From Sporopachydermia quercuum (lineage: Eukaryota): a stretch of DNA of 64,000 bases. Below the pieces are notes generated by a model. That model was not told where the DNA came from, searched no databases, and saw only the letters and a program-made list of their open reading frames with translations. Below are positions 1 to 51,231 of the stretch, in pieces. The translations under genes and the position numbers were made by a program. The DNA is taken from the NCBI GenBank assembly GCA_001599295.1, contig BCGN01000002.1, positions 1,302,001 through 1,366,000 on the forward strand, in the 5' to 3' direction. Every line of letters starts with the position of its first letter. Position 1 is the first letter of the stretch.

Positions 1-3000
1 ACAACGGAAGCTAAATACCGGACGATTCCGGTTTTGCCCGAATTGCTCGGTCCGACTAAAATCACGGGCCAATTAGCATTTATGCATGTGATTGTAGTTT
101 CTAGCACGTGATTATTACACTGAAGATACCGAAACTTTCCAGAAAACCAGCTATCAGAAAATCTACTAGATCGGGTGATTATTTCTCTCCCTATTTGCAC
201 TTGGGTTTGGGTAATTGAATAATAATAACTATCGGCTGGAATTTCCACATTAGGTATCACTTCCTGGAAGATCCGCTTAGCGTAAAGTCTATCCTGGTTA
301 CTTCGGAACCTTAATTTGATAACCAGGCCGAAAAATTCCCCTAATAATCCTGATCTATTTCGACTGCGCCTCAAAGTGGCTCCGCTATATAGCTTCAGCC
401 ATCTTAAAATATCTCTTAAATTAACTTCCCAGGGTCCACCTAACGATCCGAATTTACCCTTACCGAGTTCTTCGGATATTTTGGACACAAACCTAATCAA
501 TCCCGAAATTTCCTCTTCGGGTATTTCTGGGAACACATATTTCCCAATTAGGTCCAAATCTTCCTGTTTAAGTGTCTCTACAAACACAACACTGAACCGA
601 TTAACAAACGATTTTGGTAACCCTTTCCGACTTCCTCCTTGAGCTTGAGGATTCTGGGCGGCAAACACTCGGAACTTCGGATCACATCGGAATGTTCGAT
701 CAAGTTCGGGTATATAAGCTTCCGCTCGATGATCCAAACACGCATTTAAACCTTCCAAAACCGGTTGAGACGCTAAATTCATCTCATCTAGTAAAACCCA
801 TTGCCCAGATTGCATAGCTCGAAGAAACGGAGCGTCTTTCCAGACAAATTCTCCGGCAGATCCGTTTGGAGCGGGAGAGTCGGAACCAAAAAGGTCAATT
901 AGATCGGTTTGTTCCGAAAGGTTAATTCGAATAAGGTTTTGGCCGGCCGCAGACGCTAAAGCCGAGATCAACGTTGTTTTACCCACTCCCGGGCTTCCTT
1001 CTAATAAGATCGGTTTCCGGGATTGCATGGCTCGGATGACTCGGAAGGCGTTCTGGGCAGTTGTCGGGGCATTAAGGTTGAAGTTTTGTTCTAGAGAACC
1101 ATCCGAAGTCAAGCGGGGAATACAGAAATAGCCGGTCCGGACATATTCAGAGGTTATTTCTACAGGGAAAACCTTCTGAATCTCCGATCGGAAATCAGTG
1201 ACGGCTAATTCTCCGAGTTTTCCAACACAAATTCTTTTTTCGGACATCAACCGAGGAGAATTCTCGGCTAAATAACCCGTTTGGTTCGTCCCTAAAGCGT
1301 CAATGAAAACCATAAGTGCTCCATGTAATAAAGATACTTTGGGCTCAATCGTTTCCGTTTCAGCTTCCGTTTCTTCTTCCGACACGGAGTTAATAAAATT
1401 CACCCAAGCTAAAATATCTCGCAACGAAACTACCCCGCTTCCTAAATTACCCCCGCCGTACCGGAAACCAAACCATTCGGAAAATTTAACTATGGGATCT
1501 GTCAAACAAATCACAGGCGGTTTCAACCGAGCGGACACAATCTCTGCAACATCCGAGCTATCCTCCATGCTCGGAACCCAAATCTCGGTAAATCTGTTCC
1601 GTAATGCTGGAGATAGTTCCTTTTTACCGTAATCTCCTCCGGGATTCATAGTAGCTAAGAACTGGAATTTAGGTTCCGAGGTTACAAATGCATCGACCGA
1701 TCCTTTTTCGGCTAATAATAAAGTTCGCTCTGGTTCCAGTACCGAATTCAACCTTTCAAGCACGGAATCCTCGGCTAAGGAGATCTCATCAAATAGGAAA
1801 TAGTCCCCGCTTTTCATGGCTTGTACTAATGGTCCGTCCGTCCATTGGAATAATTGGGTCAACTTCTTTCTGTTTTGGGAAATTCTTTCCGCTATGGGAA
1901 TAATTTCGGGATTAGTAAATAAGTTTCCATGGTCAGCCCGGAGTTGATCGTATTGGGCATTAAGGTTCTCCTGTGTATTATCAATCAGAAACTCTAATTC
2001 AAGTTCCGAAGTGATCATCTTTATCACAAGCTCTAAATCCCGGGCTAATTCTGTTTGTATCACATCTCGGTTCCGCACTGGTCTTTGTGCTCCGATAATG
2101 TCTCCTGTCTCGGTGTTTTGCTGTCCATTCAGTACGACTAAATCACATCCGGCCTCCTCCGCAATTAGTTGACAGATTGTAGTTTTCCCGCACCCAGTTT
2201 CTCCTACAAGTAAAACTGGTTCCGAGTTTTTCAATGCCGAGCGGATCAAAACCGCCAGCCGACGCATGCTTTTAGTCCATACTACGTTTAGCCGGTTATC
2301 GGGGTTAAATAACGCCGAGAAATAGGAGCTCTCCTCCATATGTTTATAAACTTCAGGAACATTAAGCCGAACTCTCATCACATGCTCTAAAACTTCCCGA
2401 ACCTCGGCTTTTTCTCCCGCTTTCCGCACCTTTTCTGCTAATAACATGTATCCATTAAACGCTAATTCCTCGTACCCGACGGCAGGTCGGGCCGCCCATC
2501 GGAATAAGTCTCGAAGAGTAGCAAATCCATGTTTGTGCTCTAAAACTCGGCTTGCTTCCCTTCTAAGTAACAATTCTCGGTACACAGATACAATCTTCTT
2601 AGCATATGACGGGGCAATTTTACATCGGTCTCGGATGATCGTCTCTAGTTCATTTTCGGGTATATCCGAGAAATGCAGCTCTAAAAATCTATTACGGAAA
2701 GCTCGGGAAAGAACTTTCCGACCTCCGTAAACCCCCGGCGGGTTTTGAGTAGCGAAGAGCATGAATTCTGGATGGGGACGGACAATTTCTTGCGTTTCGG
2801 GTATAAATAACTCTCTGTTATCGTCCAATAACCGGTTCAGAGCCTCCAAAACGTCCGTGGGAGCCAAATTAAGTTCATCTAGCACAATCCAGTAACCGTT
2901 CCGAAGCGCTGTTACTAATGCGCCCTCTTGGAAACCGAGCCGACCTTCGGAATCGGATGTATACGTTCCAAGATATTCCTGAAGATCTGTATGTTCATGG

Positions 3001-6000
3001 TTATTTATCCGAACTACTTTATGACCTGTTTTGGCCCCTAAATAACGAATCATAGATGTTTTACCGGCAGATGTAGGACCTTGGATTAAAACCGGAAATT
3101 TCTGGCCCGCTGTTGCCCGGATGAGGTTTCTGAGGTTTGATTCAACCGAAGGTGTTAAGATATAGTTCGGATCATCGGAACAAGGTTCCGGTCCCTTCCG
3201 CAGCCAGAAATCTCTATAAAGGATATAAGACACATTAGCGTCGTCAGTCTTAGGTTTCGGTTCAATTGGCGCGGAACTCAACACTGATTTAGGGTTTTTA
3301 ACCCGATTCTTTCCGAAAATATGCGTATAAATTACCTCATGGAGTAGAACAGCCGACTTCGAATCCAAAACGGTTAATAAATTCATACACAGTGCCTCAT
3401 ATAAAGCTCGGCGTAACCCAAACTGTTCCGAAAGATCCCGAACGTACAATAAACTTCGGGTCAACGTTCGGACAGAAAAATGGGGCGGATCTCCCGCTCC
3501 GTCGGCTATTTGATGCTCTGAAGCTAACTTTTTAGCCGTCATATGCACTTCTGCAACATCGGTCACAGCAAAATCGTCTCCGGCAGTCATGGGACCGAGA
3601 TATCGGGATATAATAGCCGTTAAATCGTCGTAATTCTCATCTGGGGACCGGATATACAGTTCGGTTAACCGAGCCCGGAACCCTACCGGAAGATCCCGCT
3701 TTCCGACATCAGTTGCCGGGTTCATACAAGCGAAAAATCGGAATTCGGGATGAACCGGAATAGCTTCCACGTCACCTTTTTCTGATAATAGAAGTTTCCG
3801 ATCTCGGAAGTTCTCGGATATCAACTCCGAAATGCTCTCTAATGTTTCAGGGGCCGCTAAATTGATTTCATCTATTAGCAGCCAATCTCCGTTCCGAACG
3901 GCTTTAACTAGGTTACCTTCGGTGAACTTAAATGTGAAAGAATTACCAGATTGGGCTAATTGAATGCTGAATTCAGTAACCTTTGTATTAAAACTTTCCC
4001 ACTGTATCTTAAGAAGGGAATTTTCTCCGGTATTCAGCTTCCTTTTCTTCCGTTTCCGATCTGAAGGTTCTGCTGGTTCCGCTGGCTCTGAATCCTCATC
4101 ATTTCCGAAATTATTCTCGGAGAGAACCTCTTGTGCCATTTTAACTGCTTCTTGCCACAGCCGAGCCACATGTTTCCATTGGCCTTTCTGCATACATTTC
4201 GTTAAAACTCGGGCAAATCGTTCATTTTTCTTCCGTGAAAAGGTTGCGTTGAATAGTTCTGAAAACTCCTCTTGTAATGGGACGGCAATAATAGCAGAAT
4301 TGACTGGTTTATAACCTCCAAGAAGATCTCCGGTTTCGGTTTGCTGTGACACGTTGATTACAGTTAGGTTCTTACGCATCATTCCTGCAAGTTGCTGCAC
4401 TACCGTCGTTTTACCGGTACCAGTTTCCCCGACTAGTAATAGCGGTTCGGCTAGATCGACAGAAACGGCAAGTTGTTCCAATAGGGTTTTTGCCTGGTTC
4501 GTAAATGCAAATGAGTTACTTGATTGGGATAAAAGTCTAGCTTGCTTCGCTTGTGTTACCCGTTTAGGATACTTTCTAAGGCTCATGCGTCCGATTGAGA
4601 TGGCTTCTGAGGATTCGGAAAACTTCGGTGCATGATTAGACACAAATAAAGTGATTTTTGACCTGGGAATTTGTAAAACCTCTCCGATTTTCTCCGCTAG
4701 AACATTCCGGGCCCCAATTTGAGATAATGAGCCGGCAAAACAATCCACAGCCTCGGCAAAAATAGCATCAGATGAGGCATCAGAGATTTCTAGAGCTGAT
4801 GCCGAGGAAGGGGCAGACGATCCGCTTCCTGATTCGGTTAAAACTCTGCTACTTCGGCGACACCATTTCATTAAATCTCGGACCGAAATTACCCTATTAG
4901 AGGCTCCGCCGCGGCTTAACATTTTAAACCGAGGATTATTGTACATGCTAATAACAGCATCCAAAGTTTCAACGAACCGATCCGCCAGTTGGTCCAGAAT
5001 GGGAAATTTGTTCTGAATTATCAATTTGAGTTCTGGTTCTGTAATCTCCGGAACTTTAACTATATTCCATAACCGAAGGCCTATCATTTCCGGTATTTCA
5101 TTACTACTTCTAACAGCTGAACCTGTTCGAACCGTTGCTAATAACCGGAAGCCGGATGAAGCTTTAATGATTTCTCCTCGGCTCGGAATTGTCAATTCAC
5201 GCTTTTCTAATAAGGTTAATAGTACGGAAAGGATTTCAACAGGAGCTCGGTCAATATCTTCCACTAGAACCCATTTCCCGAGCTTCACCGCTTGTGTCAA
5301 CACACCAGGTCTCCATTCAAATGATCCCGGTACGGAACCGGAAGCATAAGTACCCAAGAGCAGTTTAACGTCTGTTTGTGTTCCGAGATGAATACTAACT
5401 ATGGTAGAAGCTGCAGGTGGAGCTATTCGAGATGCTAATTCCGAGATCAGGAAGGACTTTCCGGAACCGGCAGGTCCTATGATTAGAACCGGGTTTTCGG
5501 ACTGGATGTTATGGGCAAGATCGGATAAAACACGTTCCGAATTTTCGGTTGGGATATAAATATTTTCCAGAATTGAGCCTGAGTCTGAGCATGAGCCGAC
5601 ATTGTTTCCGTTTTCAATCTGTGAATCATTCACATTGTAAACAAGTGCATTACCAACTATTTGTAACTCTGGAGATATACTAGCTGTGGTGATTTGGGGA
5701 ACAATATTAATTCCGGTTTCTTCGGCAATGAAAAGATCGGTATGTTTATTGTTGTCGATTAAATCTCGGCATTTTTTCAGTCGTTCCGCTTCCGATAATG
5801 CAAAATAACGGAAAGATATCTGCCGGTTAGGAAACCCATCGAATTGACCTAATATTTCCGTTTCGGCACCAATAACGGCATCAATGGTTCCACATATCAT
5901 GTTTTCCGAATAGTTTAAATAACATCCGATAATCCGAACTGATAAATATTTAACCGGAACATCAGTATTAAAGAATAATGTATACATTATGCTTGGATCA

Positions 6001-6506
6001 ACTATCATTTGGAACCGATGTCGATCATATGATATTATCCGATAGATAGCGGTTAACAACTTCACAATAAATGGTTTCTGTTCCGCATTATTTCCGTTAT
6101 TATGTAGATATTGAGAGATTTTATTATGCTGATCATTTAATATCTTATCCGTTATGGCTAATAGTTCCGATGCTAATGGTAATAGTTTGGCTAAAACGGA
6201 TATTATATCAATCCATTGAGTAATCTTCTCCGCTTTAACAACAACATCATTATCCGAGATGAGTTCCGCTTTTCTAATCCTTCGGATCAGCAATTCGGGA
6301 AAAATCGGATTAAAATATCCGTAAATTACTTCCGGTTCCTCTATAGATTTATCGCTAAGTTGTTCAATCAAATTCTCGGCTGTAATTGCTGCTGATTCAT
6401 TGTTTGTGATCGTGATTGGGGCCAATCCAATGGTTTCTGCATATTTGTTGAACTCATTTAATGGTTTTTCCAATTGGAATGCAAATTGGTTGTTATTGTC
6501 TTTCAT
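1..6506 (-). CDS. MDN1: Midasin/Rea1 dynein-related AAA+ ATPase (60S maturation), 5' portion; continues beyond the window start
   Basis: Minus-strand frame starts at ATG 6506 (MKDNNNQFAFQLEKP) and has successive AAA modules: GPAGSGKS, GETGTGKT, GPTSAGKT, GETGCGKT, GSPGVGKT and GPSNSGKT Walker A motifs, plus DEINLA/DELNLA/DEISLA/DEMNLA Walker B motifs. It is missing from the ORF track, presumably because it has no stop inside the window. Confidence 0.96.
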   Translation of the reverse strand, partial: MKDNNNQFAFQLEKPLNEFNKYAETIGLAPITITNNESAAITAENLIEQLSDKSIEEPEVIYGYFNPIFPELLIRRIRKAELISDNDVVVKAEKITQWIDIISVLAKLLPLASELLAITDKILNDQHNKISQYLHNNGNNAEQKPFIVKLLTAIYRIISYDRHRFQMIVDPSIMYTLFFNTDVPVKYLSVRIIGCYLNYSENMICGTIDAVIGAETEILGQFDGFPNRQISFRYFALSEAERLKKCRDLIDNNKHTDLFIAEETGINIVPQITTASISPELQIVGNALVYNVNDSQIENGNNVGSCSDSGSILENIYIPTENSERVLSDLAHNIQSENPVLIIGPAGSGKSFLISELASRIAPPAASTIVSIHLGTQTDVKLLLGTYASGSVPGSFEWRPGVLTQAVKLGKWVLVEDIDRAPVEILSVLLTLLEKRELTIPSRGEIIKASSGFRLLATVRTGSAVRSSNEIPEMIGLRLWNIVKVPEITEPELKLIIQNKFPILDQLADRFVETLDAVISMYNNPRFKMLSRGGASNRVISVRDLMKWCRRSSRVLTESGSGSSAPSSASALEISDASSDAIFAEAVDCFAGSLSQIGARNVLAEKIGEVLQIPRSKITLFVSNHAPKFSESSEAISIGRMSLRKYPKRVTQAKQARLLSQSSNSFAFTNQAKTLLEQLAVSVDLAEPLLLVGETGTGKTTVVQQLAGMMRKNLTVINVSQQTETGDLLGGYKPVNSAIIAVPLQEEFSELFNATFSRKKNERFARVLTKCMQKGQWKHVARLWQEAVKMAQEVLSENNFGNDEDSEPAEPAEPSDRKRKKRKLNTGENSLLKIQWESFNTKVTEFSIQLAQSGNSFTFKFTEGNLVKAVRNGDWLLIDEINLAAPETLESISELISENFRDRKLLLSEKGDVEAIPVHPEFRFFACMNPATDVGKRDLPVGFRARLTELYIRSPDENYDDLTAIISRYLGPMTAGDDFAVTDVAEVHMTAKKLASEHQIADGAGDPPHFSVRTLTRSLLYVRDLSEQFGLRRALYEALCMNLLTVLDSKSAVLLHEVIYTHIFGKNRVKNPKSVLSSAPIEPKPKTDDANVSYILYRDFWLRKGPEPCSDDPNYILTPSVESNLRNLIRATAGQKFPVLIQGPTSAGKTSMIRYLGAKTGHKVVRINNHEHTDLQEYLGTYTSDSEGRLGFQEGALVTALRNGYWIVLDELNLAPTDVLEALNRLLDDNRELFIPETQEIVRPHPEFMLFATQNPPGVYGGRKVLSRAFRNRFLELHFSDIPENELETIIRDRCKIAPSYAKKIVSVYRELLLRREASRVLEHKHGFATLRDLFRWAARPAVGYEELAFNGYMLLAEKVRKAGEKAEVREVLEHVMRVRLNVPEVYKHMEESSYFSALFNPDNRLNVVWTKSMRRLAVLIRSALKNSEPVLLVGETGCGKTTICQLIAEEAGCDLVVLNGQQNTETGDIIGAQRPVRNRDVIQTELARDLELVIKMITSELELEFLIDNTQENLNAQYDQLRADHGNLFTNPEIIPIAERISQNRKKLTQLFQWTDGPLVQAMKSGDYFLFDEISLAEDSVLERLNSVLEPERTLLLAEKGSVDAFVTSEPKFQFLATMNPGGDYGKKELSPALRNRFTEIWVPSMEDSSDVAEIVSARLKPPVICLTDPIVKFSEWFGFRYGGGNLGSGVVSLRDILAWVNFINSVSEEETEAETETIEPKVSLLHGALMVFIDALGTNQTGYLAENSPRLMSEKRICVGKLGELAVTDFRSEIQKVFPVEITSEYVRTGYFCIPRLTSDGSLEQNFNLNAPTTAQNAFRVIRAMQSRKPILLEGSPGVGKTTLISALASAAGQNLIRINLSEQTDLIDLFGSDSPAPNGSAGEFVWKDAPFLRAMQSGQWVLLDEMNLASQPVLEGLNACLDHRAEAYIPELDRTFRCDPKFRVFAAQNPQAQGGSRKGLPKSFVNRFSVVFVETLKQEDLDLIGKYVFPEIPEEEISGLIRFVSKISEELGKGKFGSLGGPWEVNLRDILRWLKLYSGATLRRSRNRSGLLGEFFGLVIKLRFRSNQDRLYAKRIFQEVIPNVEIPADSYYYSITQTQVQIGREIITRSSRFSDSWFSGKFRYLQCNNHVLETTITCINANWPVILVGPSNSGKTGIVRYLASV

Positions 6507-7525
6507 TCTGATGAAACGTTGGTAATTAATTATATTATTAAAAACAGTAATGAGCGAAAAGTCGTAATATTGATAATAGTAATAGTAGTAATACAGTGTA
6601 ACAGCGACACAGTGACCCAACAGCTCGAAAAGACCGATAGCAAACAAAAGGTTGAATTTCCTAACGATAAACAAAATATCACTGAATAGAAAGAGTCCAA
6701 TTATATACTGTTTTATTTCACTGTTTCTTACTGTTTTGCTGTATGCTTTTACTGTTATTTTAATAGATTTTTATCACAGTTGTATGTCATTTGATAGTAG
6801 AAAAGTAAAAGGAATCACATTATTTTTTTTCATGTTAAAGGAAAATTTTTGTTTACTGAGAGAATCAATGGAGGNACCTCATATGGGACTCTAGATTATT
6901 TTTAAGGGAGTGTAGGAGAGATGGTAAGGCACTCTATATGTACAATATATGCATAATTTCAACTTATGACTGATTCTTACATATCCTTTGCATATTATTC
7001 ACATGTCTTAACTAGTCAAAAATTAATTACATGAAAACTAAACAAAAAAAGGCTTTGCGAATACCCAGCCATTTATCAGTCACTTCCAACAAGCTTTTAT
7101 AGGATGTACTAACCTTTCAATTAATATTAGCCTTTTTTCGCTTCTGATAATGGTATATAAATTGCATTGCTAATCATTTCATCCAGTATACCTCACATGA
7201 GACTCTATGTCACGTGAGTTTAAATTCTACCCAAATCTAGAATCCATCACCCAATTCCGGAAACTATTATCTCAGCTTAATAAAAGAGTGTAATCAATGA
7301 GTGAGGTGCCTGACATACTAATTATACCAGAATAGCCCTTATTATCCGTTTCCACTTACTCATTAATTCGAATCATCAATAATTAACATTCTTACTGCCA
7401 ATTCAATGCTGTCAGCAACACCTGATTCTCATAGCTATACCAATTCTTTTACAAGGTATATTGAATGTCTCTGAGCTACTTATCTACACATGTACAATAT
7501 AATACAATAAACAGACTGATCACAA

Positions 7526-8733
7526 TTGGTTTTCAGTTGGTTTCCAGCAAAACTGTTCAAATCTATTGAAAGATCCTTATCTAAAGCCCATATTGAATGT
7601 CCTGCTACTAATTTCAAATTACCGAACTGTCTCCTCTCCCATAATCCTGACTCAGAAGCTAGAGCTTTGGCTCTAGCTAGGTATGCTACTGTTAAGAAAA
7701 GAAGACCTTCTCGTCACAGCAGTAGAGGAGATCAAGATCCTTATACAGAAAACGGAAATCGTAGCGGTTATAGAGAGAATAACAGAAGCAGAAGAACTAG
7801 AGATTCATCGTCAAGGACAAGTTCGCGTTCTCGATCCAGACCTAGATCGAGATCGAGATCAAGGAGAACTTCAACCTCTACCACAGGAAAAACTCCAATA
7901 ACCCCTAGAACTCCTGGCTATCCTTCACCAACGGGGTGGGAAATGTTTAATAGATCTGCTAGTAATCCACAATCAAATACAGTACATAACTCTGAAATGA
8001 AAGAAAAAGCGAAAGAAGAAAAGAACACTCTTTATAACACCAGCGAAAGACATATGAGTGGAAGAACAGTAGATTTAGAAAACGCTCATGAGCAATGGCT
8101 GATAATGGTGATCGTGCTTATGAAACAAGGGGACCTTCAGAGCATGGAAGGAACAGTTTTGAAAGTAGAGAAATAGCTAGTTCTGCCAATGGTGTTGCTT
8201 TGGGTAAACGGAAACGTTGGAGATCGAGAGATGATGAATGGCAAGAGAGTCCTAGAAAAGAACCTAGATTTGGTGCTCATACGCCGGCAGCACAACGATG
8301 GAAGTCAACTGGAGGAGTTTTAAACCATGAGGATAACCCTGGGGATAACAAATATAGGAATGGCGATGATAATGAACAGAATCAGGATCAGAATCAAGAC
8401 AAGAATATGCCGGAAGCATCAGGGTGGATAAATGAGTCTGAAGATGAAGAAAATTTGTTCCCTATTCAAGTTAACTCTGGTACGGCCTTAGGAGCTCAAC
8501 AACGCATGAGTTATTTACAAGTGTTAGTAGATGTTATGAAAGTTGATGGTTTACAAGGATTTGTTCATAAAACAATGGATGAAGAAGCTTATATTGCTAG
8601 AAGGTTTTCTTCTAAGTTTAGGTATCATGATGAGGTGAGAAGGCTCATTCAACTAGTGGAAAATGGCCGTTGGGAAGAATGGTTGATTGATAAGCAAAAC
8701 GTCAAACAATCTGGTTGTTCTCGAACTCAAAAG

Positions 8734-9974: not shown

Positions 9975-10148
9975 GAACAATAAGAGAAATAAAATAAGTT
10001 CTTACTTCTAGAATGATAGATGTTTTGCATACAAAAGCTATACTATTGAACAAATTAGTTAGTCAGCTAAGTAGTTATTAGCTTATTTCATCAAAGTTTT
10101 CTGCATACCTAAATATATAAATCAAAAGTTCATGGTCACGTCATAGAA

Positions 10149-12573: not shown

Positions 12574-12671
12574 TGTTTATTATGATGATATTATGATATG
12601 TTGCTTGAAGATTAACGTCTATGTAAGCACAATGATTTCTCAATAGACTACAACGGTATCTGATATAAACA
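12574..12671 (+). ncRNA. SNR79: Box C/D snoRNA, snR79-like (18S rRNA 2'-O-methylation guide)
   Basis: Box C ATGATGA at 12582 and box D CTGA at 12660, with terminal stem TGTTTAT/ATAAACA. The guide AGACTACAACGGTAT is complementary, with one mismatch, to conserved 18S AUACCGUCGUAGUCU. It lies next to SEN2, as I recall for S. cerevisiae snR79. Confidence 0.85.
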
Positions 12672-12846
12672 AGTATTGGTCCAAAGTCTTTGTTGTGGTG
12701 GTGATTAATGTATCTATTATTGAAGGCAAAGAGGTAACGCTCTTTGGTTATAAATACGTAATCATGATCAAATTTCTAACAAATAGTCAGAGAAGAGAAA
12801 ACATAATTTATTGACTAGAAACCTCATTATTAAGATATTTTCCATA

Positions 12847-14055
12847 ATGAGTGCCTCGGTTCAAGAGTCTCCAATTAGGAGGAACAAAAGGACTCCATTA
12901 CATCAGCAGTATCCTGATCCTTTACCTATTAAAACGTATAACCTTCCTTTAATATCCCTTGATAATCCAATGACATTCTTACCATATATATACAAATTGG
13001 CTAAAATTCTGTATTCTGCATTCAGATCGACTAATGACGACCAAATATCTGTAAACGCAGATCTTAAATCACGTAATATGATTCTTGTTAGTATGGATAA
13101 AGATATGCAATTGTTATGGAAAATGGGTTTTTTCGGTAAAGGTAATCTTTCAAGATCTGAAGCTACTTGGAGAGGTAGAACAGCAAGAAGATTAGGACTT
13201 TTCACTGAAGATAAATTATCACCAGAAGAAATCACTGCTTTGAGACGGAAACAAAGAGCTGATTTCAAAACTCTGAGGGCGAACGTCGAAATTTACACTA
13301 TTCAACTGAGGAAAAAAGTCGATGCTGGTGAAATTACTGCACAAGAAATGGGATCTATGGTTGAGAAAGCGGAAGCTGAATTGTCGAGACCAATGGGAGG
13401 TTATGTTGATGCTCAAGAATTGTTAAATGAGTCTCTGAAGGATCAAGTTGTTGATAGAGCTAAATGGAGAAATGAAGATAAGGTTATTGTTAATGAGGTC
13501 AACGCAGTTACTGATTTGGAGAAGCTAGAATTAATGCCGTGTGAAGCTTTCTTTCTTAGTTATGCAGTGAATATTCTCCAGGTTTCATATAACAATAAAC
13601 AACTGGATCATTCAGAACTGTTCTTGAAGCTTTGTCGGTCTTACTTGCCTGATGATGGTTTCATCATTTACTACATAGCGTATCATTATTATCGATCTCT
13701 AGGCTGGTGTGTCCGTTCTGGTGTGAAATTTGGTTCAGATTTTTTGTTGTACAAGAGAGGGCCACCATTTTCCCATGCTGAGTTTGCAGTGATTATTTTA
13801 CCTCAGAGCAAGAATAAAGAACAAATAAATAAGATCAATGGGAAACCTTGGAACTGGACAACTAATATTTCAAGAGTCATTGGTGGTGCTAAGAAGACGT
13901 TGGTCTTTTGTTATGTTGAATATCCTGATGATATCTCGCAGTATAAGACTCTTGTCGAAGATAAACCAGTGATTGATTTTCCTTCATTTTTGAGGGCCTA
14001 TAAAGTGACGGATATTGTATATAGACGATGGGTTCCCAACCGTAATCGGGACTGA
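12847..14055 (+). CDS. SEN2: tRNA-splicing endonuclease catalytic subunit
   Basis: LWKMGFFGKGNLSRSE, LELMPCEAFFL, YHYYRSLGWCVRSGVKFGSDFLLYKRGPPFSHAEF and the terminal RWVPNRNRD. Confidence 0.95.
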   Translation: MSASVQESPIRRNKRTPLHQQYPDPLPIKTYNLPLISLDNPMTFLPYIYKLAKILYSAFRSTNDDQISVNADLKSRNMILVSMDKDMQLLWKMGFFGKGNLSRSEATWRGRTARRLGLFTEDKLSPEEITALRRKQRADFKTLRANVEIYTIQLRKKVDAGEITAQEMGSMVEKAEAELSRPMGGYVDAQELLNESLKDQVVDRAKWRNEDKVIVNEVNAVTDLEKLELMPCEAFFLSYAVNILQVSYNNKQLDHSELFLKLCRSYLPDDGFIIYYIAYHYYRSLGWCVRSGVKFGSDFLLYKRGPPFSHAEFAVIILPQSKNKEQINKINGKPWNWTTNISRVIGGAKKTLVFCYVEYPDDISQYKTLVEDKPVIDFPSFLRAYKVTDIVYRRWVPNRNRD

Positions 14056-28809: not shown

Positions 28810-29915
28810 ATGTCTAGCGAAGAACTGATTACGCAGGTTGAATTCCTTATTGAATGTTTTCAAAAGATTGATCATCTACTTTCATTGCATTTTTTTCGTT
28901 CTACGTCACCTTATCCTTTCTCAAAGCTCCGTGAAAACGTGAATAAATCGTTATTCAGTGGGATATTCACTCAACACCATTTCTCAATCATACTTGCCAT
29001 ATACCCAGCATGCTACACTGTTCAAGATGCTTACTGCTTGACAAACAACCAAGATACGTATCAATTACATGAAGACAAATATTCATTTTCAGTTTTACCA
29101 CCAAAAAATGTTGCCCCATGGGAAATGACAAAGTTAGGTAATGAAAGACGAATACAATTCACATCTAAAGCAGTCAAGATAATGAAANNTGGTGGTCCTT
29201 TACCGGTATTTGATTTCAGCTGTTTGCTACCTAGAATCTCTATGACGAAAAGGAAATCAGATCGTGATATTTCAGAATCGATGGTGAAAGTTAAGAAAAC
29301 TTTTGTTATTCAAGACGAGAGCGTATTATTAGAAAAAGTATGTTCAAGTGCTTCTATCCCTAAATAAAGTAATAGCAATTGTAGGTACCTACAGCCGCTA
29401 TTAACAATCAAATACGATTAGATACTAACAGGAATCAGATACGAGCAAAAGAACAGTTGAAAAATCAGTCACCGCTATCAAAAGAAGATAAATATAAAAG
29501 TTTCATCAAAGCTAAAGCACCACAAGTTTTAACTATCTTGTCTTTGTAAGTATCAATCACTGGAATGGAGTTCTAATACTTCCCCTTGAATTACTAACAA
29601 ACAANCATTCATATTTATAGACTTGAACCATCTCAGTCAAAGGCAAAAGCGTACTCATATCAAGAATTAACGAAGAGAGTTTCTGATTCATTGGCACTGG
29701 CCAAACAACGAAACGAGACGCATTTAAGTAAAGATGAGATACACGATATATTTGAAGTACTAGAACAAACAGTTCCTGAGTTTTTGCAGGTGATTCAAAT
29801 GACTGGCGATAGTAAAGATATAACAGAGAATAAGGAAAGATGTTGTGCTATCAAGCTGGACTTTCCGCGAGGTATTCAGGCATTGGAGTTGTTTCGGAAA
29901 AGAGTGAAAGGTTAA
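28810..29915 (+). CDS. CDT1: Replication licensing factor Cdt1/Tah11, three exons
   Basis: Exons 28810-29337, 29439-29545 and 29621-29915 join in frame, giving SVLLEK|IRAKE and a winged-helix-like C terminus (LEQTVPEF). Divergent from SSC1, like TAH11. Confidence 0.75.
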
Positions 29916-30057: not shown

Positions 30058-33000
30058 TCATTGATCCTTTTTACTTTCTTTCTCACTCTCATTCGCAACG
30101 CTTTGAACAGTTCTAACAGCAATATCTGATGGTTTGAAATCAGCGAAGAAAAACTTCAATCCAATCTCAATCAAATAACTAATAACAAAATCTAATATCA
30201 TAGTAACTGTGAGCTTGAATTTGAACAAATCTGTCATTGGAACAAATTGCATAGCTTCATTCAACTCAGGAATAAATTCTGTTGATCCTGCTAATGATAA
30301 TGCTGCAACTCCTAATAATCCGTAATACATTCCTTTGTTTTCACTCAATCCTTGTCGGAATGGTCGGCCTTGATAATTGCAGACAAATGTTGAAACATTC
30401 AACGATAATTGCAATAAGAAAATCGCCGTACATAGCAATGACGGTTCAAACTCTCCATCTAAATCAACGGCTTCTTTCCTTGGCTCAATTTTATAAACTT
30501 CATTAGCAACATAAATAAATGAGGCAATATGAACAACGAATTGTCCAATAATTGATCCCATAATGTAAATATTGAAGATACCTGGTTGAGGTCTTTGAGC
30601 TGATAGTTTTTCAATAGATTTTGATCTTGAGATACTCAAGAAACACACAGATAATAAGATTCCTGAAGCTGTTTGTTGGGTGTCACCATATTTAATTCCT
30701 GCAAGGTATAAAACTGATAATGAGTAAGCAGAAATCAGACAATTCAGTGCTAAAATCTTATACATTTGAATCGTTGAAACAAGGGCACATCTACCTTGGC
30801 GAATGATATGAGCAACAGCAGAAACGTTCGCTAGTTTTGAAGTGAAAGGTGCAGCAACTGAAGCATCACCAAGTTTCAATTGGGGAGGTTCTCCATCTTC
30901 ATCCAACATGTCAGTTAACTTATCAGCAAAAGCAGCTGATTTCTGTTCTGCAGTTTCAACATTTGAGGAATTTTCAAGCTCTTTTCTAATCTCTGCAAGA
31001 GTATTTTCATCTAAAACAATACCTTTCTCTTGCATAACCGTCAAATAATGAGGATTATCAACTCCCGGTGGATATAAATGAGCAATAGCTTTTGGCACAG
31101 GAGGAACTTTCCCATTGGGATTCCATTTTTTCATTAATTCTTTCTGCTTCTCATACGTCTTTTGAAGTCGGTCAGATTTGGCATTTTCAATCATCTTTTG
31201 CATACCCTCAGAAGTACCATTAAGTAAAGCAACTCCTACATCAGCTTGTTTAAGAGCTCCAACATCATTGGTACCATCACCACACATTAAAGTCATATAT
31301 CCTAACTCTTTTAATTGGGTCAGAATGAATTCCTTTTGAGAAGGCGAAACTCTGGCGTAGATCCAAGTATGACGAATGAGCTTCTTTAACTGTTTGTGAG
31401 ATTCTAATTTGGCTAGTGCATGTCCGCTCACGCAGATATCGTATTTATCAAATAAAGATTCGTCAATATCATCATTAGCATTAAGAGGAATAATGATTGA
31501 TTCATCAACGGTTCTCCATACTAAATCATGATCAGTTTTCACCAGTAAAGTTTCATCAGGCTGATCAATGATCAGTACTTCTCTTTCGGTAATGGCAACT
31601 TCCTTCGCAACATGACAGGCAGTTAAAGGATTATCACCAGTGATCATCACACATCTATGAGAAGATTCATTAAGCATTTGAATAGTTTCAATTGCATCTT
31701 CTTTTAAAGGACAGTGGAAAACGAGAAATCCTCCAAACTCAAGCTTGGATTCAATTTCCTTCCTATCAAAATTATTCACCTTCTTAGCTGTGATGTTATC
31801 GTTGAGATATTTATATCCTAATGCTAAAACACGAGATCCGCTTCTGGTGAATGATTTGAAGGTTTCATCGTAGTTTTCTGGAACAGACACCAACATTTGT
31901 TTGATAGTTTCTGGTGCACCTTTAACACCAACAATTGTCTTCGCTCCATAGGAAGCAATACTGGAAGATCTCTTCAAAGCAGAGGAAAATTGAAATCTAC
32001 GTAAGATTTTAACATGTTCAGCGTTAGGAATAGAACCAGGTTTTTGATTCGATTGTTTCTTCCTTTTAGAAGCATCTACCTTATAGCAAACATCGTTTTC
32101 ACCGACTGTCCACGAAATGGCATTCAAAGTAGCCTTTTCTAAAGGATCACCGACGATATCACCATCGTCCAGAAGAACTAGAGCATGGGCAGAAGCTAAG
32201 GTCAAAATTGTATGTTTAGGAACGTCATCAACGCCTGAGAGCTGGGTGAGATTTTCATTGAAACCAGCAATACCTTCAAAGACCAAATCTTCACCAGTAA
32301 GAGTACCAGTTTTATCAAAACAGCAAACATCGACTCTTCCAGCATATGGAATTCTAAATGGCTCAGTACAGTATATGTAGAATTTACCTAAAGCGGCCAA
32401 TGAATTGTTAACAGCAATTGTAAGTTCCATAGGCAATTCTGGAGGTACGACCGAAGTAATAATAATGACACAGTCTAAAAGCAATTTGGATCTCTCACGG
32501 TCGATTTTAACACCTTCTTTCCAAACATACCAACTAGCGGCAATAGCGAATTGTAATAAGAAAAGAATGAAAAACATAGCTTCTTTGTTACCAACGCCAA
32601 CTCTTTCGGTTGAAAAAATCATTACTCTAACTAAAGATCCTTGAGACGTTTCAAACCCAGTTTTGGTGACAACAGCTAAAGCGCCATCATCAGGGGGAGC
32701 AGAAATCTTTGGTGCAACAGGTTTTGTTATTTGCAGTACTTTGGTACCACCATGAAGTATGGAATTTTTGTCAAGGCCTTCGGGATCAAAACTGTCTTTC
32801 GGATCTCTTAGAAGGAGAGATTCTTTCAATAAAGGAGTCGATTCACCAGAAAGCATTGCTTCGTTAACAATAGCAGTTCCGTCTAATAGGATCAAATCGC
32901 AAGGCAAAACTGATTCTTCTGTTGAACGTAAGACGGAAACAACATCACCAGGGAGCAGATCATCAGTCTGACGCTCTTGCCATTCACCATTACGATACAC

Positions 33001-33926
33001 ATTTATTGCATAGGGTTTAACGCCCATACCTCGGAACTCCATGAGAGTAGCTCTTCTTTGGAAGACGACAGTTCCTTCAAACATAACAAGCATAAACAGT
33101 GTAAACAAGGAATAATACCAATACTCATCAAGTAGCCATAAGCCGACACAGAAGATTTGGAAGACAAAGAAAGGAGCAACAGCATGTTCTTTGAACAGTT
33201 CAGAAAATGATGGCACTGGGATATCAAATCTGTTTTTACCATACATTCTCATCATTTTCTCGGGATTTCCAGTCAATCCAACAGAATCCTGGAAATCTTT
33301 GATAGTAGGCTTTGAATCAACAAAGAATTCGGGCGGTGAGAAAGAATCAGTAGTTGCATCATATAGAAATCTCCTCTTTTGATAGAGAAAAGAGATTTGA
33401 GCTTCGTCATCTTCGAATTCATCACGGAAAATAGTACAAATATCACCAACTCCACAATTGGGTGCTGGCAGAATTTTGATCATATCAGCCTCATCAACAG
33501 AGTTTACTTTGATACCTTGGAAAGCAGCTTTGATGTTAATATTCCAGAATGGCATCAACCAAAGTAGCAATTGTAAAGAAACAATTGTTCCTAAGTAGAC
33601 AGTGGTCCATTCTCTTCCGTTTATATACTCTTCATAATGATTGACAAAAATGTGAAAGAAAAAACCGTATAAGAAGACGAATGGCCAAACATGAGGTCTT
33701 TGAATAAGAGGTCTAGGCTTTAGAAGCGTTGCTTCTACGATGGTTGGGTTTGGCACGAGCCTTGGAAGCTCAGCAGCAGGTTTGACCGCCCTAGAAAAAG
33801 AAATGTTAGCCGCTCAGCCAATTCAAATGTAGGAGGAAAGCCCCAGCGGTTCCATATAGCAGTATAATCAACAGAGAATAATAGTAATGATAAGCAGGCA
33901 GATCCAAGGGTAAATAACACATACAT
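30058..33926 (-). CDS. SPF1: P5A-type ATPase (ER transmembrane helix dislocase)
   Basis: SGES, PPELPMEL, FDKTGTLT, TGDN and GDGTND motifs. The start codon is split AT|G by intron 33791-33924. Confidence 0.95.
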
Positions 33927-44383: not shown

Positions 44384-47300
44384 TCAGTACTTCAGCCTTC
44401 TTTCCATTTTATTCCCATTGTCTTGAATAAGCTTAGCAAGCTTTGTTTTCTGAAAGTTGAATGATGGATCAACTACACACATTGGGTCATTTAGTAGTTC
44501 TTTTGCTGTTGGCCGTTTCTCNGGATCACTGGAATTTCAATGTTAGTAATCAGACTAAATAGCACTACATAGTAATCAAACAGTAATCAAATATTTACAA
44601 CAATAAATGATCAGCCAATCCTTCTTTCCCCTAGCAAATATACTTACATATTACAACACTCCTGAAGAATGAAGTTCTGAGCATCTTTCGAAACATACGG
44701 AAGAATATCAGAAGGAATTGGTGGTCCCCGCTTTTCACTAGCAACCATAAACATGGCACTGAGAGCTTCTCTCTCCGACCAAGGTCTTCTACCAGCAAAC
44801 ATTTCTAGAACGACACATCCTAAAGACCAGATATCAACTTTAGCGCTGTAGCCTTGTTTTTGGTCGTTTCTTACGCTATCCATGACTTCAGGGGCCATCC
44901 AGAAGATGGATCCTTGCATGAATGAGTTTTCTTCATCGGCATAGGCGTCTCCTATAACGGGAAAGTTAGTGGATGAATTCAGATTCCGGAGGCGGAAAGC
45001 ATAATTGATAGGCTTTAAATGAGGTTTCAAAGATAATTAATACGTACTGCTTCTTTTGGAGATACCGAAATCGGTAATTTTGCACACCCCGTTCAAATCG
45101 AGTAATAGATTATCCGCTTTTAGATCCTATTGTGGTTTTTGTTAGTACACTAATTGTGGTTCAAAATGACTGTTAGCCACAGATAAACTGGAAATGATCT
45201 CAGTAGAATAGAAACCAATAAACCTGAAATCATAGCATAAAAATAGTCTCCAATTCGCTCCGGTATCATTCCCATTTCCCTGTTCCCATTCCCATTCCCA
45301 TCCCCATTTCTGTTCCTTCTGTATACTTACTCTATGCAGAATACCATTAGCATGCAAATATGCCAAACCTTTCAACACCTGCGCTAATAAAAACCTAATC
45401 AAGCTCTCATCAAACCTTCCATAAGCCTTTATGCACGTTCCAATTGACCCTCCAGGAACGTATTCTAGAAACAAACTATAAAAGTTGTCCTTTTGTTCGA
45501 AACCTAAATACTGGACCACGTTCACGTGATTCAAATCCTTTAAAGTTTCAACCTCGGACGTTAACGCATCAACTAAATCGGCTACTCGGCTTCTCGCCAA
45601 CGGATGTTTGGGAACCTCCACCTGTTTTACTGCCATCATTTCACCAGTAGTAATGTTCATGGCAATGAACACTTTAGCAAATGTCCCTTTCCCTATTAGT
45701 TCACCTTTCACCCAAGCCATTGGCCTGTCCTTGGTATCTGTTGTTGTGAGCAAAGCTGTGACTGCGCTTTTATTCTTTGTATCGTTTGGTTTCACTTCAA
45801 TTACCTTTTGGCCCCATAGTTTTGTACTGGTGCGTCTAAGGATAGCACCCGAAGAACCCGGCAAAGGAGTGCTTGCCATAGTGATTTTCCGTCTTGCTTC
45901 ACTTGCTTCTCTTGCAACCACGCGTATACTTTTCATTCTCCGATGTAAGCCGGTATTATTTCCGGTATTGGCGGGTTTGTCTTTATTCCGAAGTTTATTG
46001 TTGATTAGGTGATCACTACTATTATCTTCTCCAGGATTTCCCAGACCGGAATCCATGGAAGTATTGCCCGAGTTATTATTTGCGCTTTTAAGGTTCAGCT
46101 TCCGTTTATTCAAACCGTCCATTTTAGGGGAAATGGGCGAAGGAAGCAGTCCTTCTGCCACAATTGGTTGATCCAGATCCGTATCAGGAAAGAACTTTTC
46201 CAAATTCTTATATAAAACGTCTTCTGAAGGTCTCATTGCCCAATTACTACTTTCAAGTGGAGTCACTTCATCTCCTCCGGTTTTATGATTTCCGCTATTG
46301 TCAGAACTAGCGGTGCTGCTATTACCATTGTTGCAGCTATTGCTATTACTATTCCTATTACTATTGCCATCTTCTCCGTCTNTTACCCTCGCAGGGCTTG
46401 TCACTACAGGCCGTTTAGCCCATAGGCCATCATCGGATTCATCAGTGGAAACGCCTTCCGAACCGTCGGATTCCTCATTGGGAACGTTATCAAAGTTAAT
46501 TTCGTTTTCCCTAAACTGTTCGTCTGTTGGCCGTTCTAGGGTACTAACGAATCGTTTTGAACTTTTGCGGCGAACGAAGTTATCGCTATAGTTTCCGCTT
46601 CCATATTCGCTCCCCCTTTCGGGTTCTGAGTTACTACTTCCGGCAGTAGACACAACTGTGGCTGAGCTAGTGGTGCTATTACTGTTCATAGAATGAGTAG
46701 CTTTCAGATTCTGGTTTCCAGGNAGCCTTGGAGGTGGAGGGGGTGCAGCCCGCTTGGCTATAATACTCTTATCCTCATAAGGCGATAATCTTCGTTGGTC
46801 AAAGTCGATTTCCTTCTTTCTGAGTACTCGGAAGGATTCATTTCCGGTAGGAGAATGTGTTTTGGTTACCTGCTTGATGAGAGAAGCGCCTTGCTCTTTC
46901 AGCTGTTTCGTGGTCATTCCNGAGCTTGAGGAGGGGAAGGGAGTTAATTCGGCCGAGTTATGGTGTTTTCTGGCTGCTGTGGCAGAGTTGGATGCTTGGC
47001 TGTCAAAAGCGGAATGGCCAGATATGGCTTGACTACCTGGTTTAGAGGCTCCATGAATTTTGTTGTTGATAGCGTTAACCAGCGTTGCCGAATTAGGAGC
47101 TTGCGGCGGTTGTGGTGGCTGTGGCGGTTGTGGCGATGGCGTATCTTCGCTACTTCCAGTAATAGCACCACTATTTTCGCCAGCATTACCGCCTGCACCG
47201 CTTCCTGAGCCCCAAGCACCCTTCGGAGGCTTCTTCTGTAACCCGGCTTTATCCCGCTCACTCCTATCCGAATTTCCTTTATTTCCATANGTCTTATAGT

Positions 47301-50300: not shown

Positions 50301-51231
50301 CATGGGTGTTCAATCCTTCATTGTTGTTGATGTTGGGAGTATTTATGTGTAGATTTCCTTTTCCTTCTGTTTCGTATATGGTTTTATCGTCAGCATGCTG
50401 ATATTCTATTGGCTGCCGCAGTTGGTGATGTGGTTGCTGGTATTGATGGTTCGTTTGATCAATAGGAGATGAATTGGCAGCAAAAGGCCTCGAGGTTGCT
50501 CCTGACGGACTTTCGTAGAAGTAACTGCCATCATTTACATTACCACCGCTGCTACTACTACCATTATAAGGTTTCCCACTGCTGGATTTCCCATAATGCT
50601 GGACCTCGGGAAGCTGAGGCGGCCATGGAGGAAAACTCGGGACAGAATTATCGCCGTTGCTTTTGTCATAAAGTGCTCCCATTGGTCCCGTTCCTTGTCC
50701 TGTGCCCAGTTTTGGATGCCCGCTGATCATTTTATCATATTCATTATCGCCATGATTTAAATCAGAATAGTTCATAATCGACTGCTGAAAACTAAACTCA
50801 GAAACATTAGATGTAGAACTGTTATCAACGGTAAAAGGCGTAGAAGGCATACGATGTTTCAATCCCGATGGATCAAACGATGTTCCTGCTGTGCTTGGTA
50901 TTCCTGTGCCTGCTGATAGCTTATTCAAGGCGCTCGAAGTTAGATGCTGCTTGCTTGCTTTCTTCTTTGACGATTTCCCATTTTTAAGGGGTTTGTTCGG
51001 CTTCTCCTTACCAACGCCCGGTTTTCTGCTCCTGACTCCCGGCATAGCCATAGAAGGATATGGCGAGGAAGAACTTGTTACATTTGCTCCATTTCTAGTA
51101 GACAGTTGCTCCTGGGTGATATCTGAAAAGTCCGGTACATCAACAAAGAACTCGGGTAACTCACTTTCCTTGTAGTTGCCATCCGATCTTCTGGGTTTGC
51201 CCTTTTTGGATTCGTATCGGCTATGGCTCAT
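44384..51231 (-). CDS. BCK1: Cell-wall-integrity MAPKKK, four exons
   Basis: Exons 45331-51231, 45048-45126, 44648-44951 and 44384-44527 rebuild the kinase: GELIGKGTF, AVKQV, HR|DLKADN, DFGISK, MQGSIFWMAPE. The Bck1-type WAMRP..LEKFFP.TDLD motif precedes it. Confidence 0.92.

Follow-up and report, generated by a model that had tools for sequence, protein, structure and literature searches.

A dense CCG·CGG overlay with a sharp internal edge in the MDN1 gene of the yeast Sporopachydermia quercuum

Nearly all of the MDN1 coding sequence visible in the analysed window (the whole stretch of 64,000 nucleotides) is overlaid with the trinucleotides CCG and CGG, which are about sevenfold enriched over the neighbouring genes. 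The overlay is a real DNA-level signature in an early-branching yeast and has no established explanation. It follows a context rule, ends at a sharp edge and lies on a host-like codon background. It is accompanied by a shift in protein composition and a long terminal branch, and the phylogenetic placement of the gene is normal. The preferred explanation, with a probability of roughly 0.35, is a motif-specific, long-acting fixation bias, which is limited to the tract and acts on the duplex DNA of a native gene. The parts of the locus are as follows.

1..6380, no strand: CCG·CGG-dense tract; it ends on the right at 6380 (support 6335-6420) and runs past the left end of the window.
3..6506, minus strand: MDN1 (midasin) coding sequence, N-terminal ~2168 codons, with the ATG at 6506-6504.
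6381..6506, minus strand: the first ~42 MDN1 codons, free of the overlay and host-like in codon choice.
6507..7300, minus strand: MDN1 upstream region, A+T-rich, with CCG/CGG at host level and an E-box-like GTCACGTG at 7209.

Midasin is a ribosome-assembly protein of about 4900 residues. The MDN1 frame is open up to the edge of the window, which excludes the 3' two-thirds of the gene. The product is 50-54% identical to midasins among the 120 of 1566 matches listed, and the named midasins among these 120 are budding-yeast proteins. Conserved arginine positions use CGG/CGA, and conserved proline positions use CCG. In the preferred explanation, positions 1-6380 are the larger part of the MDN1 seen here, native and vertically inherited.

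Positions 1-6340 contain 328 CCG·CGG, compared to expectations of 53.0 based on the remainder of the window and 47.8 based on ten host ORFs. Recoding the MDN1 protein with the codons of its neighbours yields 86 ± 9. In bins of 2 kb there are 98, 116 and 97 CCG+CGG across 1-6000, and 7-22 in every bin between 8001 and 44000 (18 bins). The density is 51.8 per kb in the MDN1 tract and 4.5-11.9 per kb in twelve other ORFs. Other ORFs in the window have no excess, be it SPF1 (33 compared to 38 expected), MCM3 (20 compared to 19) or an ORF of 2029 amino acids (137 compared to 150), and the observed/expected ratio (o/e) of CCG is 0.65 in the remaining 57 kb. An earlier note on this DNA had described the triplets as dense in MDN1 and scarce elsewhere, and had placed the end of the signal near 6.4 kb. 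The former is borne out by the 328 motifs against the 48-53 expected from the neighbours, and the latter by maximum likelihood, which gives one change point, 6380 (support 6335-6420); it falls 85-170 nt within the coding sequence of MDN1. Leftward of 6380 the motif occurs at 51.5 per kb and rightward at 6.4 per kb, and no CCG/CGG is present between 6378 and 6633. Because the ATG occupies 6506-6504, about 42 initial codons are without the signal. Inside the tract, the profile is a flat plateau with 7-22 sites per 250 bp. A distance of 85-170 nt between the edge and the start codon fits a gene-linked cause; were the edge an arbitrary domain border, such closeness would be accidental.

The coding strand of the tract contains 154 CCG and 174 CGG, and both triplets occur in all codon phases (30/76/48 for CCG and 48/71/55 for CGG), in agreement with what the earlier note had said about strands and phases. 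A total of 78 motifs are in frame, and 250 of the 328 are out of frame. Shuffles that preserve MDN1's own codon usage contain 240.7 ± 8.1 motifs, compared to 328 observed, and the junction phases hold 48 and 55 motifs where such shuffles give 22.6 and 28.0, respectively. The context rule operates across codon borders. Pyrimidine-ending two-fold codons end in C in 59-64% of the cases before GG or CG, compared to 25-26% elsewhere, and C is not favoured before other codons starting with G or C. C precedes CGA in 28 of 41 cases and T precedes CGG in 25 of 48, both of which create the duplex word CCGA/TCGG; CGG seldom has C before it. CCGG is present 45 times (4.9 expected) and CCGA/TCGG 150 times (16.7 expected), and the words most strongly preferred are CCGA/TCGG and TCCG/CGGA. 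The six NCGN classes that lack CCG/CGG total 76 compared to 95, which is the host level. The A/T flanks described earlier are present, with T preceding in 45% and A following in 46%, but they are weak and contain less than 0.25 bit of information per position. The interpretation as a DNA-level layer, and not a translational preference, is supported by the 250 of 328 out-of-frame motifs, the equality of the strands and the rule that crosses codon borders.

Two candidate explanations were rejected at this level. A vertebrate-type CpG island does not describe the tract, in which only the CpGs of CCG/CGG are raised and which starts downstream of the ATG. A translational codon bias or rare-codon cluster does not describe it either, because the effect reaches beyond the reading frame. 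In frame, the codon-family shares change from 3% to 35% for CGG, from 9% to 30% for CGA and from 5% to 30% for CCG.

Two-fold codons are the same in the tract and in the host (GAT 0.75 and 0.76, AAT 0.58 and 0.61, respectively). The C-ending shares in tract and host are 0.25 and 0.24 for GAC, 0.42 and 0.39 for AAC, 0.48 and 0.49 for TTC, 0.27 and 0.34 for TAC, and 0.07 and 0.28 for CAC. A general W-to-S or GC shift at synonymous sites, including those of two-fold codons, is absent from the tract. At the 1528 of 2110 codon positions of the tract that are motif-neutral, usage was compared with that of seven host low-expression ORFs, giving r of 0.87 and a chi2 of 59 (df 33). The chi2 between two host gene sets is larger, 91.5. 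The whole tract was modelled as host usage multiplied by exp(1.62 per motif). This model has one parameter: each motif earns a bonus of about 1.6 log-units, or about five-fold in odds. It matches the GC content (0.43), the total CpG count (359 compared to 347 ± 13) and the gap dispersion. It reproduces all phase counts within 2.6 sd and also the non-motif CpG words, save GCGA. The residuals beyond a pure CCG/CGG bonus are CCGA/TCGG (z 6.9), CCGG (z -4.4) and GCGA (z -3.7).

The helical-turn spacing that the earlier note had suggested did not hold up as an array: neither lags 20 and 30 nor the spectral power stand out. Spacing was compared with codon-aware null samples (300 for adjacent gaps). 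Lag 10 occurs 21 times compared to 11.9 ± 3.0, and adjacent gaps of exactly 10 also occur 21 times, compared to 10.0 ± 2.9, a value that none of the 300 null samples reaches (family-wise 0.03). Lag 20 occurs 16 times (12.0 expected) and lag 30 occurs 10 times (12.8 expected), and lag 29 is as high as lag 10. At 9-11.5 bp, 70% of the power-scored null samples reach the spectral power that was observed, and the peak of a plain FFT at 9.68 is within noise. Nucleosome phasing through a 10-bp spacing, another suggestion made earlier, is not supported; the small excess of exact 10-bp gaps is all that was seen.

Fungal Zn2Cys6 factors have CGG half-sites, and the CDEIII element of point centromeres has CCG. 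The MDN1 sites are similar to these in their core triplet and in the T and A flanks. Unlike them, the MDN1 triplets are unpaired, lie in coding DNA and have no A+T-rich CDEII-like element. The earlier note had proposed an array of sites for a Zn2Cys6-type factor. A test of four orientation classes with spacers of 0-29 gave none of the spacing or orientation preference that paired Zn2Cys6 sites would have; the top class, CCG-N7-CCG, occurs 11 times compared to 4.7, which is within multiple-testing noise. Single CGG half-sites may still be Zn2Cys6 targets. TTCCGAA or TTCGGAA is found 13 times in the tract and 7 times in the other 57 kb. A point centromere, which would call for more than 85% A+T over some 80 bp beside a CDEIII with CCG, was rejected as a candidate: the maximum A+T in 80-bp windows is 0.75 in the tract and below 0.86 across the 64 kb.

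The protein is affected as well. Over 1969 columns, the residue shifts in MDN1 are R +32, P +16, A +16, G +13 and K -26, and the GARP fraction is 0.240 compared to 0.185-0.224. SPF1, used as a control, has no GARP shift (0.209 compared to 0.205-0.220). Query-specific replacements overlap a motif in 25.8% of the cases and conserved residues in 23.7% (p 0.47), and therefore the long protein branch is not just motif creation. The terminal branch of MDN1 is 1.77, compared to 0.84 for Nadsonia, about double the expected length, whereas that of SPF1 is 0.37 compared to 0.48 for Nadsonia. In both the MDN1 and the SPF1 tree, the query groups with Nadsonia and apart from the remaining five yeasts, a thin sampling of 6 shared species, in which no discordance between the two genes was found. 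With outgroups added, the query stays within the yeast clade (SH-aLRT 99). Of 54 MDN1 loci fetched, 14 were analysed, the collections containing no close relatives, and none of these 14 loci or their flanks has a CCG o/e above 1.01.

It is possible, if unlikely, that MDN1 is a mosaic gene in which recombination replaced most of the sequence, perhaps together with further DNA on its left, the edge at 6380 being the junction. The donor, no more probable, would be the DNA or cDNA of an unsampled, fast-evolving relative with a CCG·CGG-signature genome. The edge is sharp and in frame, the plateau is flat, the synonymous turnover is complete and the protein branch is long, all of which agree with a replacement. 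In the model of cDNA-mediated conversion, a 5'-truncated cDNA leaves the 5' end unconverted, and would spare precisely that end here. Blocks of introgressed DNA that keep a distinct codon usage are reported from budding yeasts, for example Lachancea kluyveri (PMC4271529, PMC7449078, PMC9246145). However, the host-unlike codon usage of an introgressed block is not seen at the 1528 motif-neutral positions, which follow the host low-expression pattern, and non-motif CpGs are at host level. The donor therefore needs the same background, which fits badly with the doubled protein branch. The tree placement is the same as that of the neighbouring SPF1, and no homolog closer than 54% was found among the 120 matches listed. 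Since 0 of 14 MDN1 loci exceed a CCG o/e of 1.01, the donor's signature would be unprecedented in the sample. Moreover, a replacement merely shifts the unexplained bias to another genome. An artefact (chimeric assembly, contamination or polishing error) has a negligible likelihood. An abrupt compositional step can resemble a mis-join, but two studies, of 2016 and 2023, provide Logan contigs (130 kb and 18 kb; both runs may be one strain) that span 1-8725 without a break and with 0 other letters in the tract, the frame continues past the edge, and the N-terminal sequence shows midasin homology. A mis-joined contig, which the earlier note had named beforehand as a possible refutation, is ruled out by this continuity. 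The junction at 6380 exists in the sequenced strain, which does not imply its presence throughout the species.

Selection might have acted on the duplex or on the transcript. It is rather doubtful that dense CGG/CCG sites are read on the duplex by a protein or by a chromatin or modification system. Equally doubtful is the candidate form of this function, in which monomeric Zn2Cys6-type half-sites, TCGG/CGGA, would each give a small benefit in a very long transcription unit. Strand symmetry, phase independence and a start just past the start codon give the overlay a gene-linked look that agrees with such a function, as do the uniform per-site bonus and the 328 realised sites out of 689 possible. 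The T-CGG and CGG-A flanks presumably represent a resemblance to common Zn-cluster half-sites. CCGG double sites are under-used (z -4.4) and C is rare before CGG, as though one site were enough, and there is a slight surplus of 10-bp neighbours. Nevertheless, the triplet pairs have no favoured spacing or orientation, the flanks are poor in information, the sites are in transcribed coding DNA and not in regulatory DNA, SPF1, MCM3 and the 2029-residue ORF lack the signal, and the doubled protein divergence is left unexplained. Selection at the level of RNA or translation, for slow rare codons (CGG/CGA/CCG), mRNA structure or an RNA modification motif, is very improbable. The RNA modification ac4C does have a CCG motif, the three codons rise in frame to 35%, 30% and 30%, respectively, and the first ~42 codons are spared. 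The folding z is -0.57 ± 0.16 for the sense strand and -0.16 for the antisense strand, compared to -0.18 to +0.53 for three other genes. This folding signal is weak, however, and the difference between sense and antisense is not significant. Short-range complementary CCG...CGG pairs number 108 and 141 compared to ~126 expected, i.e. there is no excess. Furthermore, most motifs are out of frame, the third-base choice follows the first two bases of the next codon, and an RNA motif does not need the near equality of CCG and CGG on the sense strand.

A motif-specific fixation bias in the native gene would act as follows. The host low-expression codon pattern would be retained beneath a uniform CCG·CGG preference. 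The process would resemble biased gene conversion or biased mismatch repair, but with specificity for the motif. It would act on the tract, replace synonymous sites and enrich the protein in Arg, Pro, Ala and Gly, and the roughly doubled protein divergence would accompany this bias. The force would be one of fixation, and not a mutation bias or selection for function, and it would be tied to the tract or the transcription unit. Of the three mechanisms considered in the earlier note, a domain-restricted mutational or repair bias seems to fit best. The one-parameter fit, the flat plateau with its sharp edge and the mouse gene Fxy as a precedent in form support a fixation bias. Its absence from the other 57 kb, where recombination hotspots of the ordinary kind are to be expected, counts against it. 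The bias is not generally W-to-S, so ordinary GC-biased gene conversion is excluded. We know of no repair or conversion system specific for CCG·CGG in yeasts, and a literature search for one found none. There is a somewhat less than even chance that a duplex-DNA force is confined to the body of the longest gene, in the form of either motif-specific repair or conversion or a selected field of CGG-reading sites. It is about as credible that such a force recodes approximately half of the available positions, alters the protein and constitutes a gene-scale overlay without prior description.

Fxy, the nearest parallel, lies across the pseudoautosomal boundary, where a highly recombining domain begins, and is subject to GC-biased gene conversion; its 5' part is reported to be unchanged and its 3' part to have a massive rise in directional substitutions, with 28 replacements (PMC2631073). 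Like Fxy, MDN1 has an unaffected 5' part, a sharp internal border and directional protein change. Unlike Fxy, in which all changes are reported as generic W-to-S, MDN1 has unshifted two-fold codons and favours only the choices that create CCG·CGG. The left arm of chromosome C of L. kluyveri is described as introgressed, GC-rich and ~1 Mb long (PMC4271529, PMC7449078). The MDN1 tract is likewise a sharp-bordered block of distinct composition in a budding-yeast genome, but its visible part is 6.4 kb of one gene, its motif-neutral usage is host-like and its placement is concordant. Published work on yeast GC3 reports non-adaptive biases that differ among the genes of one genome, the affected genes often being physically clustered, and a bias on MDN1 would be comparable; unlike the differences between gene sets in that work, the overlay is trinucleotide-specific, phase-independent and has its start within a gene. 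In Escherichia coli, very-short-patch repair raises CCWGG-related words genome-wide and is tied to Dcm methylation. By analogy, the MDN1 overlay may likewise be a short word over-represented on both strands through repair as a fixation bias. Unlike the genome-wide bacterial effect, that in MDN1 is limited to one tract, and no yeast counterpart of very-short-patch repair is known to us.

GC-biased gene conversion, introgression or codon selection is usually invoked for local compositional anomalies of genes. The MDN1 tract fails the defining test of each of these causes, yet a single trinucleotide parameter describes it well, and the case is sharply bounded and essentially binary. If a motif-specific fixation bias is the true cause, sequence-specific repair would reshape a eukaryotic gene together with its protein, with consequences for selection tests and codon models. 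If a selected field of sites is the true cause, it would represent a hitherto unknown way to mark or handle a very long transcription unit.

The duplex trinucleotide CCG·CGG (the motif) is packed into one part of the gene for midasin, MDN1, at the left end of the window. This part of the gene, referred to as the tract, contains 51.8 motifs per kb, compared to 4.5-11.9 in twelve other open reading frames (ORFs). The window is budding yeast DNA with a G+C content of about 35-37% and contains the following features.

3-6674, minus strand: MDN1 (midasin), N-terminal part; ATG at 6506-6504, frame open through the left window end
12578-12665, plus strand: match to the C/D-box snoRNA snR79 (89.3 bits, gathering score 55), adjoining the upstream side of the next ORF
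12811-14055: tRNA-splicing (tRNA-intron) endonuclease subunit
30058-33756, minus strand: SPF1
45142-51231, minus strand: Ser-rich ORF (2029 aa, 15.5% Ser), its C-terminal end matching a protein kinase
Other ORF: Hsp70
Other ORF: MCM3
Other ORF: adenosylhomocysteinase
Other ORF: AP-complex mu subunit
Other ORF: PX/Vps5-like protein

CCG and CGG together number 98, 116 and 97 per 2 kb across positions 1-6000, and each of the 18 2-kb bins of 8001-44000 contains 7-22. The tract (1-6340) holds 328 motifs when the strands are collapsed, compared to 53.0 predicted from the rest of the window and 47.8 predicted from ten host ORFs. The observed/expected ratio of CpG is 1.1-1.3 inside the tract and mostly 0.4-0.8 elsewhere in the window. 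Along the tract the motif density stays level, at 7-22 per 250 bp, and it drops to 0-1 per 250 bp across the next 750 bp. With a one-change-point fit, the edge falls at 6380 (support 6335-6420). It lies 85-170 nt into the MDN1 coding sequence, and this closeness to the start codon favors a gene-linked cause. The dense signal in MDN1 and its disappearance near 6.4 kb, both described in an earlier note on this DNA, are borne out by the counts and the fit.

The stretch is present in three sequencing runs of one organism, originating from two studies; no RNA run was among those listed. The earlier note had named a mis-joined contig as one finding that would overturn it, but contigs of one run per study, possibly from the same strain, span 1-8725 unbroken with no differing letter inside the tract. 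One of these contigs, 130 kb long, extends about 121 kb past the left window end. Over the 12 kb compared, two changes separate the 2023 run from the window, a 2-base deletion at 7194 and T>C at 10003, and the tract is identical. N letters are found at 39 places of the window, 40 in all, with one double (29188-29189); two of these places (6875 and 20931) are left of 29 kb and 37 are right of it. Such an uneven spread might represent masked heterozygous positions, with the left part being homozygous.

Two runs of other organisms yielded just short conserved pieces, less than 95% alike, and a first metagenome scan with a single protein as the query found no relative. Relatives of midasin were found at 54 metagenomic loci, of which the 14 with long matches were analyzed. 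In these 14 MDN1 loci, the observed/expected ratio of CCG is 0.35-1.01 and the CCG share of CpGs is 0.15-0.27, equal to their flanks, compared to 2.53 and 0.46 in the tract. None of the 14 shows the signal, and a conserved property of MDN1 is rejected on this ground. The region 44-52 kb is a second compositional outlier (G+C of 0.43-0.49, compared to about 0.36 around it), where synonymous G+C is raised in general (CTG, CAG, GAC, TGC) and the CpG ratio is 0.7-0.9. The same motif effect was rejected for its GC-rich part at 45-51 kb, with CCG at 136 versus 126 expected and the junction effect absent. The kinase match of the 2029-residue ORF covers profile positions 2-122 of 263 only; the half-matched domain may be due to an intron or a truncated frame.

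Amino-acid content does not create the signal, because the MDN1 protein rewritten with the codon usage of its neighbors contains 86.3±9.3 motifs. When the synonymous codons of the gene itself are shuffled, the count is 240.7±8.1, compared to the 328 observed, in a range of 0-689 reachable by synonymous choice. Only 78 motifs are in frame as CCG or CGG codons; the other 250 straddle codon borders, and the border phases exceed the own-codon shuffle (e.g. 48 versus 22.6 and 55 versus 28.0). The coding strand carries 154 CCG and 174 CGG with mirror-image flanks. These numbers agree with the earlier proposal of a DNA-level layer, present on both strands and in all codon phases, rather than a codon preference.

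A general rise of GC3 or a weak-to-strong drive of the gene conversion type is excluded because two-fold codons show no shift to C or G. The C-ending share of two-fold pyrimidine-ending codons is 59% before GG and 64% before CG, compared to 26% where the next codon begins with G but not GG, and 25% where it begins with A or T. Of the CGA codons, 28 of 41 have C in front; of the 48 CGG codons, 25 follow a T and 14 a C. The Arg codons thus mostly give one copy of the duplex word CCGA/TCGG. Among the NCGN words of the tract, CCGA/TCGG occurs 150 times (16.7 expected), CCGG 45 (4.9), CCGC/GCGG 43 (10.1) and ACGG/CCGT 45 (16.3), whereas the six classes lacking CCG or CGG total 76 (95 expected). The flanks contain little information outside T at -1 and A at +3 and +4, which speaks against a longer hidden motif, although some longer words are over-used relative to own-codon shuffles (GTTCCGA 15 versus 2.8, CGGAAC 28 versus 7.8, CCGAG 47 versus 16.7).

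The helical-turn spacing of about 10 bp suggested in the earlier note is not sustained. Plain autocorrelation and FFT of the motif positions revealed nothing above noise. Under a codon-aware null, 21 adjacent gaps measure exactly 10 bp, versus 10.0±2.9 (family-wise 0.03), and lag 10 is found 21 times versus 11.9. Lag 29 between the CpGs of CCG/CGG, with 20 versus 9.4±2.6 (reached by 0 of 300 null samples), is as deviant as lag 10. Lags 20 and 30 are at expectation under the same null, and the observed spectral power at 9-11.5 bp was reached by 70% of the null samples scored for power. There is therefore no helical array, only a surplus of about 11 neighbor pairs at 10 bp among 282 gaps.

The background of the tract resembles that of the host. 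At motif-neutral codon positions, where no synonymous alternative creates or destroys a motif (1528 of 2110 in the tract), usage follows seven host low-expression ORFs (r 0.87; chi2 59.3, df 33), and this chi2 is below that between two host gene sets (91.5). The MDN1 protein was sampled with host low-expression codon usage, weighted by a factor exp(lambda) for each motif, lambda being 1.62. This overlay model matches the motif total by construction, as well as the G+C content (0.43), total CpG (359 versus 347±13), all six phase counts (within 2.6 sd), five of six non-motif CpG words and the gap dispersion (CV 0.81 versus 0.87±0.05). It misses CCGA/TCGG (150 versus 92), CCGG (45 versus 72), CGA codons (41 versus 18) and the over-used longer words. 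GCGA/TCGC, also missed, is strongly avoided (6 versus 22.7). According to the available part of one source, most yeast orders strongly prefer AGA, and CGA is generally unpreferred (10.1101/2024.05.23.595506). Under a mutation-selection-drift model, lambda would translate into a scaled fixation bias near 1.6 for each motif, similar in order of magnitude to weak codon selection or biased conversion.

Identity of the query to midasins is 49-54% among the best 120 of 1566 matches, the named ones belonging to many yeast orders, and SPF1 is 60-68% identical to the homologs listed. These low identities of both proteins indicate that the host is an isolated, early-branching yeast lineage. Of 12 strongly conserved columns with CTG codons (MDN1, 3-6506, minus strand), 11 have a conserved Leu, so that this lineage reads CTG as leucine. 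The code is standard, and codon reassignment is rejected, as 17 of 20 CGG codons and 25 of 26 CGA codons fall on conserved Arg, and 19 of 20 CCG codons on conserved Pro.

The protein itself is unusual. Compared to eight yeast midasins (1969 ungapped columns), it has gained 32 Arg, 16 Ala, 16 Pro and 13 Gly and lost 26 Lys, 22 Leu and 18 Asp. The share of Gly, Ala, Arg and Pro is 0.240, compared to 0.185-0.224 in six of those midasins (1979 ungapped columns); for SPF1 it is 0.209, compared to 0.205-0.220. Of 1207 conserved columns, 275 are changed, compared to 68-169 in eight orthologs treated alike. Motif-bearing codons are no commoner at query-specific replacements (25.8%) than at conserved residues (23.7%).

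In a seven-taxon tree, the terminal branch of MDN1 is 1.77, compared to 0.84 for Nadsonia; for SPF1 in the same taxa the values are 0.37 and 0.48. Both trees join the query with Nadsonia against the other five taxa. With seven metagenomic outgroup and ingroup sequences added, the yeast clade still includes the query (SH-aLRT 99), whose branch is 1.02, compared to 0.61 for Nadsonia. Given the long branches and this position, divergence of the protein is about twice the expectation, with no sign of foreign placement. A mosaic origin or introgression of the tract would account for the sharp edge and the long branch. However, it leaves the host-like background and the concordant tree placement unexplained and requires a donor signature absent from everything sampled. 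It is held to be fairly unlikely. A selected field of putative CGG-type sites is held to be less probable still; paired zinc-cluster sites were rejected, as triplet pairs favor no particular class of orientation or spacer.

Several other causes were rejected. The tract is richer in A/T runs of at least 8 (4.3 per kb) than SPF1 (3.2), contrary to GC clamps breaking such runs, and their deficit relative to own shuffles is not beyond that of other genes. Avoidance of Nrd1/Nab3 or poly(A)-like sense words does not rise above the overlay model (z -2.0 to +0.8). The Nab3-like word TCTTG occurs in ten host ORFs at 0.86 per kb sense versus 3.03 antisense, and this antisense excess is gone in the tract (0.63 and 0.79 per kb). 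Sense-strand depletion of the Nab3-like word is similar in Saccharomyces cerevisiae. The signal for mRNA hairpins is weak, with complementary pairs not in excess. Translation and a point centromere each failed a direct test, and a search of the tract for tandem repeats, Rfam families and tRNAs found none of note.

With translation, RNA structure, A/T runs, terminators, a centromere, paired zinc-cluster sites and helical phasing all rejected by direct tests, the remaining proposal is a force that would act on duplex DNA, in place and over a long time, and favor one short word. The leading, still tentative, reading (probability of roughly 0.35) is a tract-limited fixation bias, a motif-specific analog of biased gene conversion or repair. 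Judging from the available part of the source, it has a formal likeness to Fxy at the mouse pseudoautosomal border (PMC2631073). In the portion available of another paper, physically clustered yeast genes are under different non-adaptive biases within genomes (PMC9246145), and the proposed bias would fit this pattern. The accessible portions of the literature searched contain no description of CCG/CGG-specific enrichment in a gene body. The feature is real, strong and well described, but mechanistically unexplained, and it fails the defining tests of known categories. The tract is worth following up.
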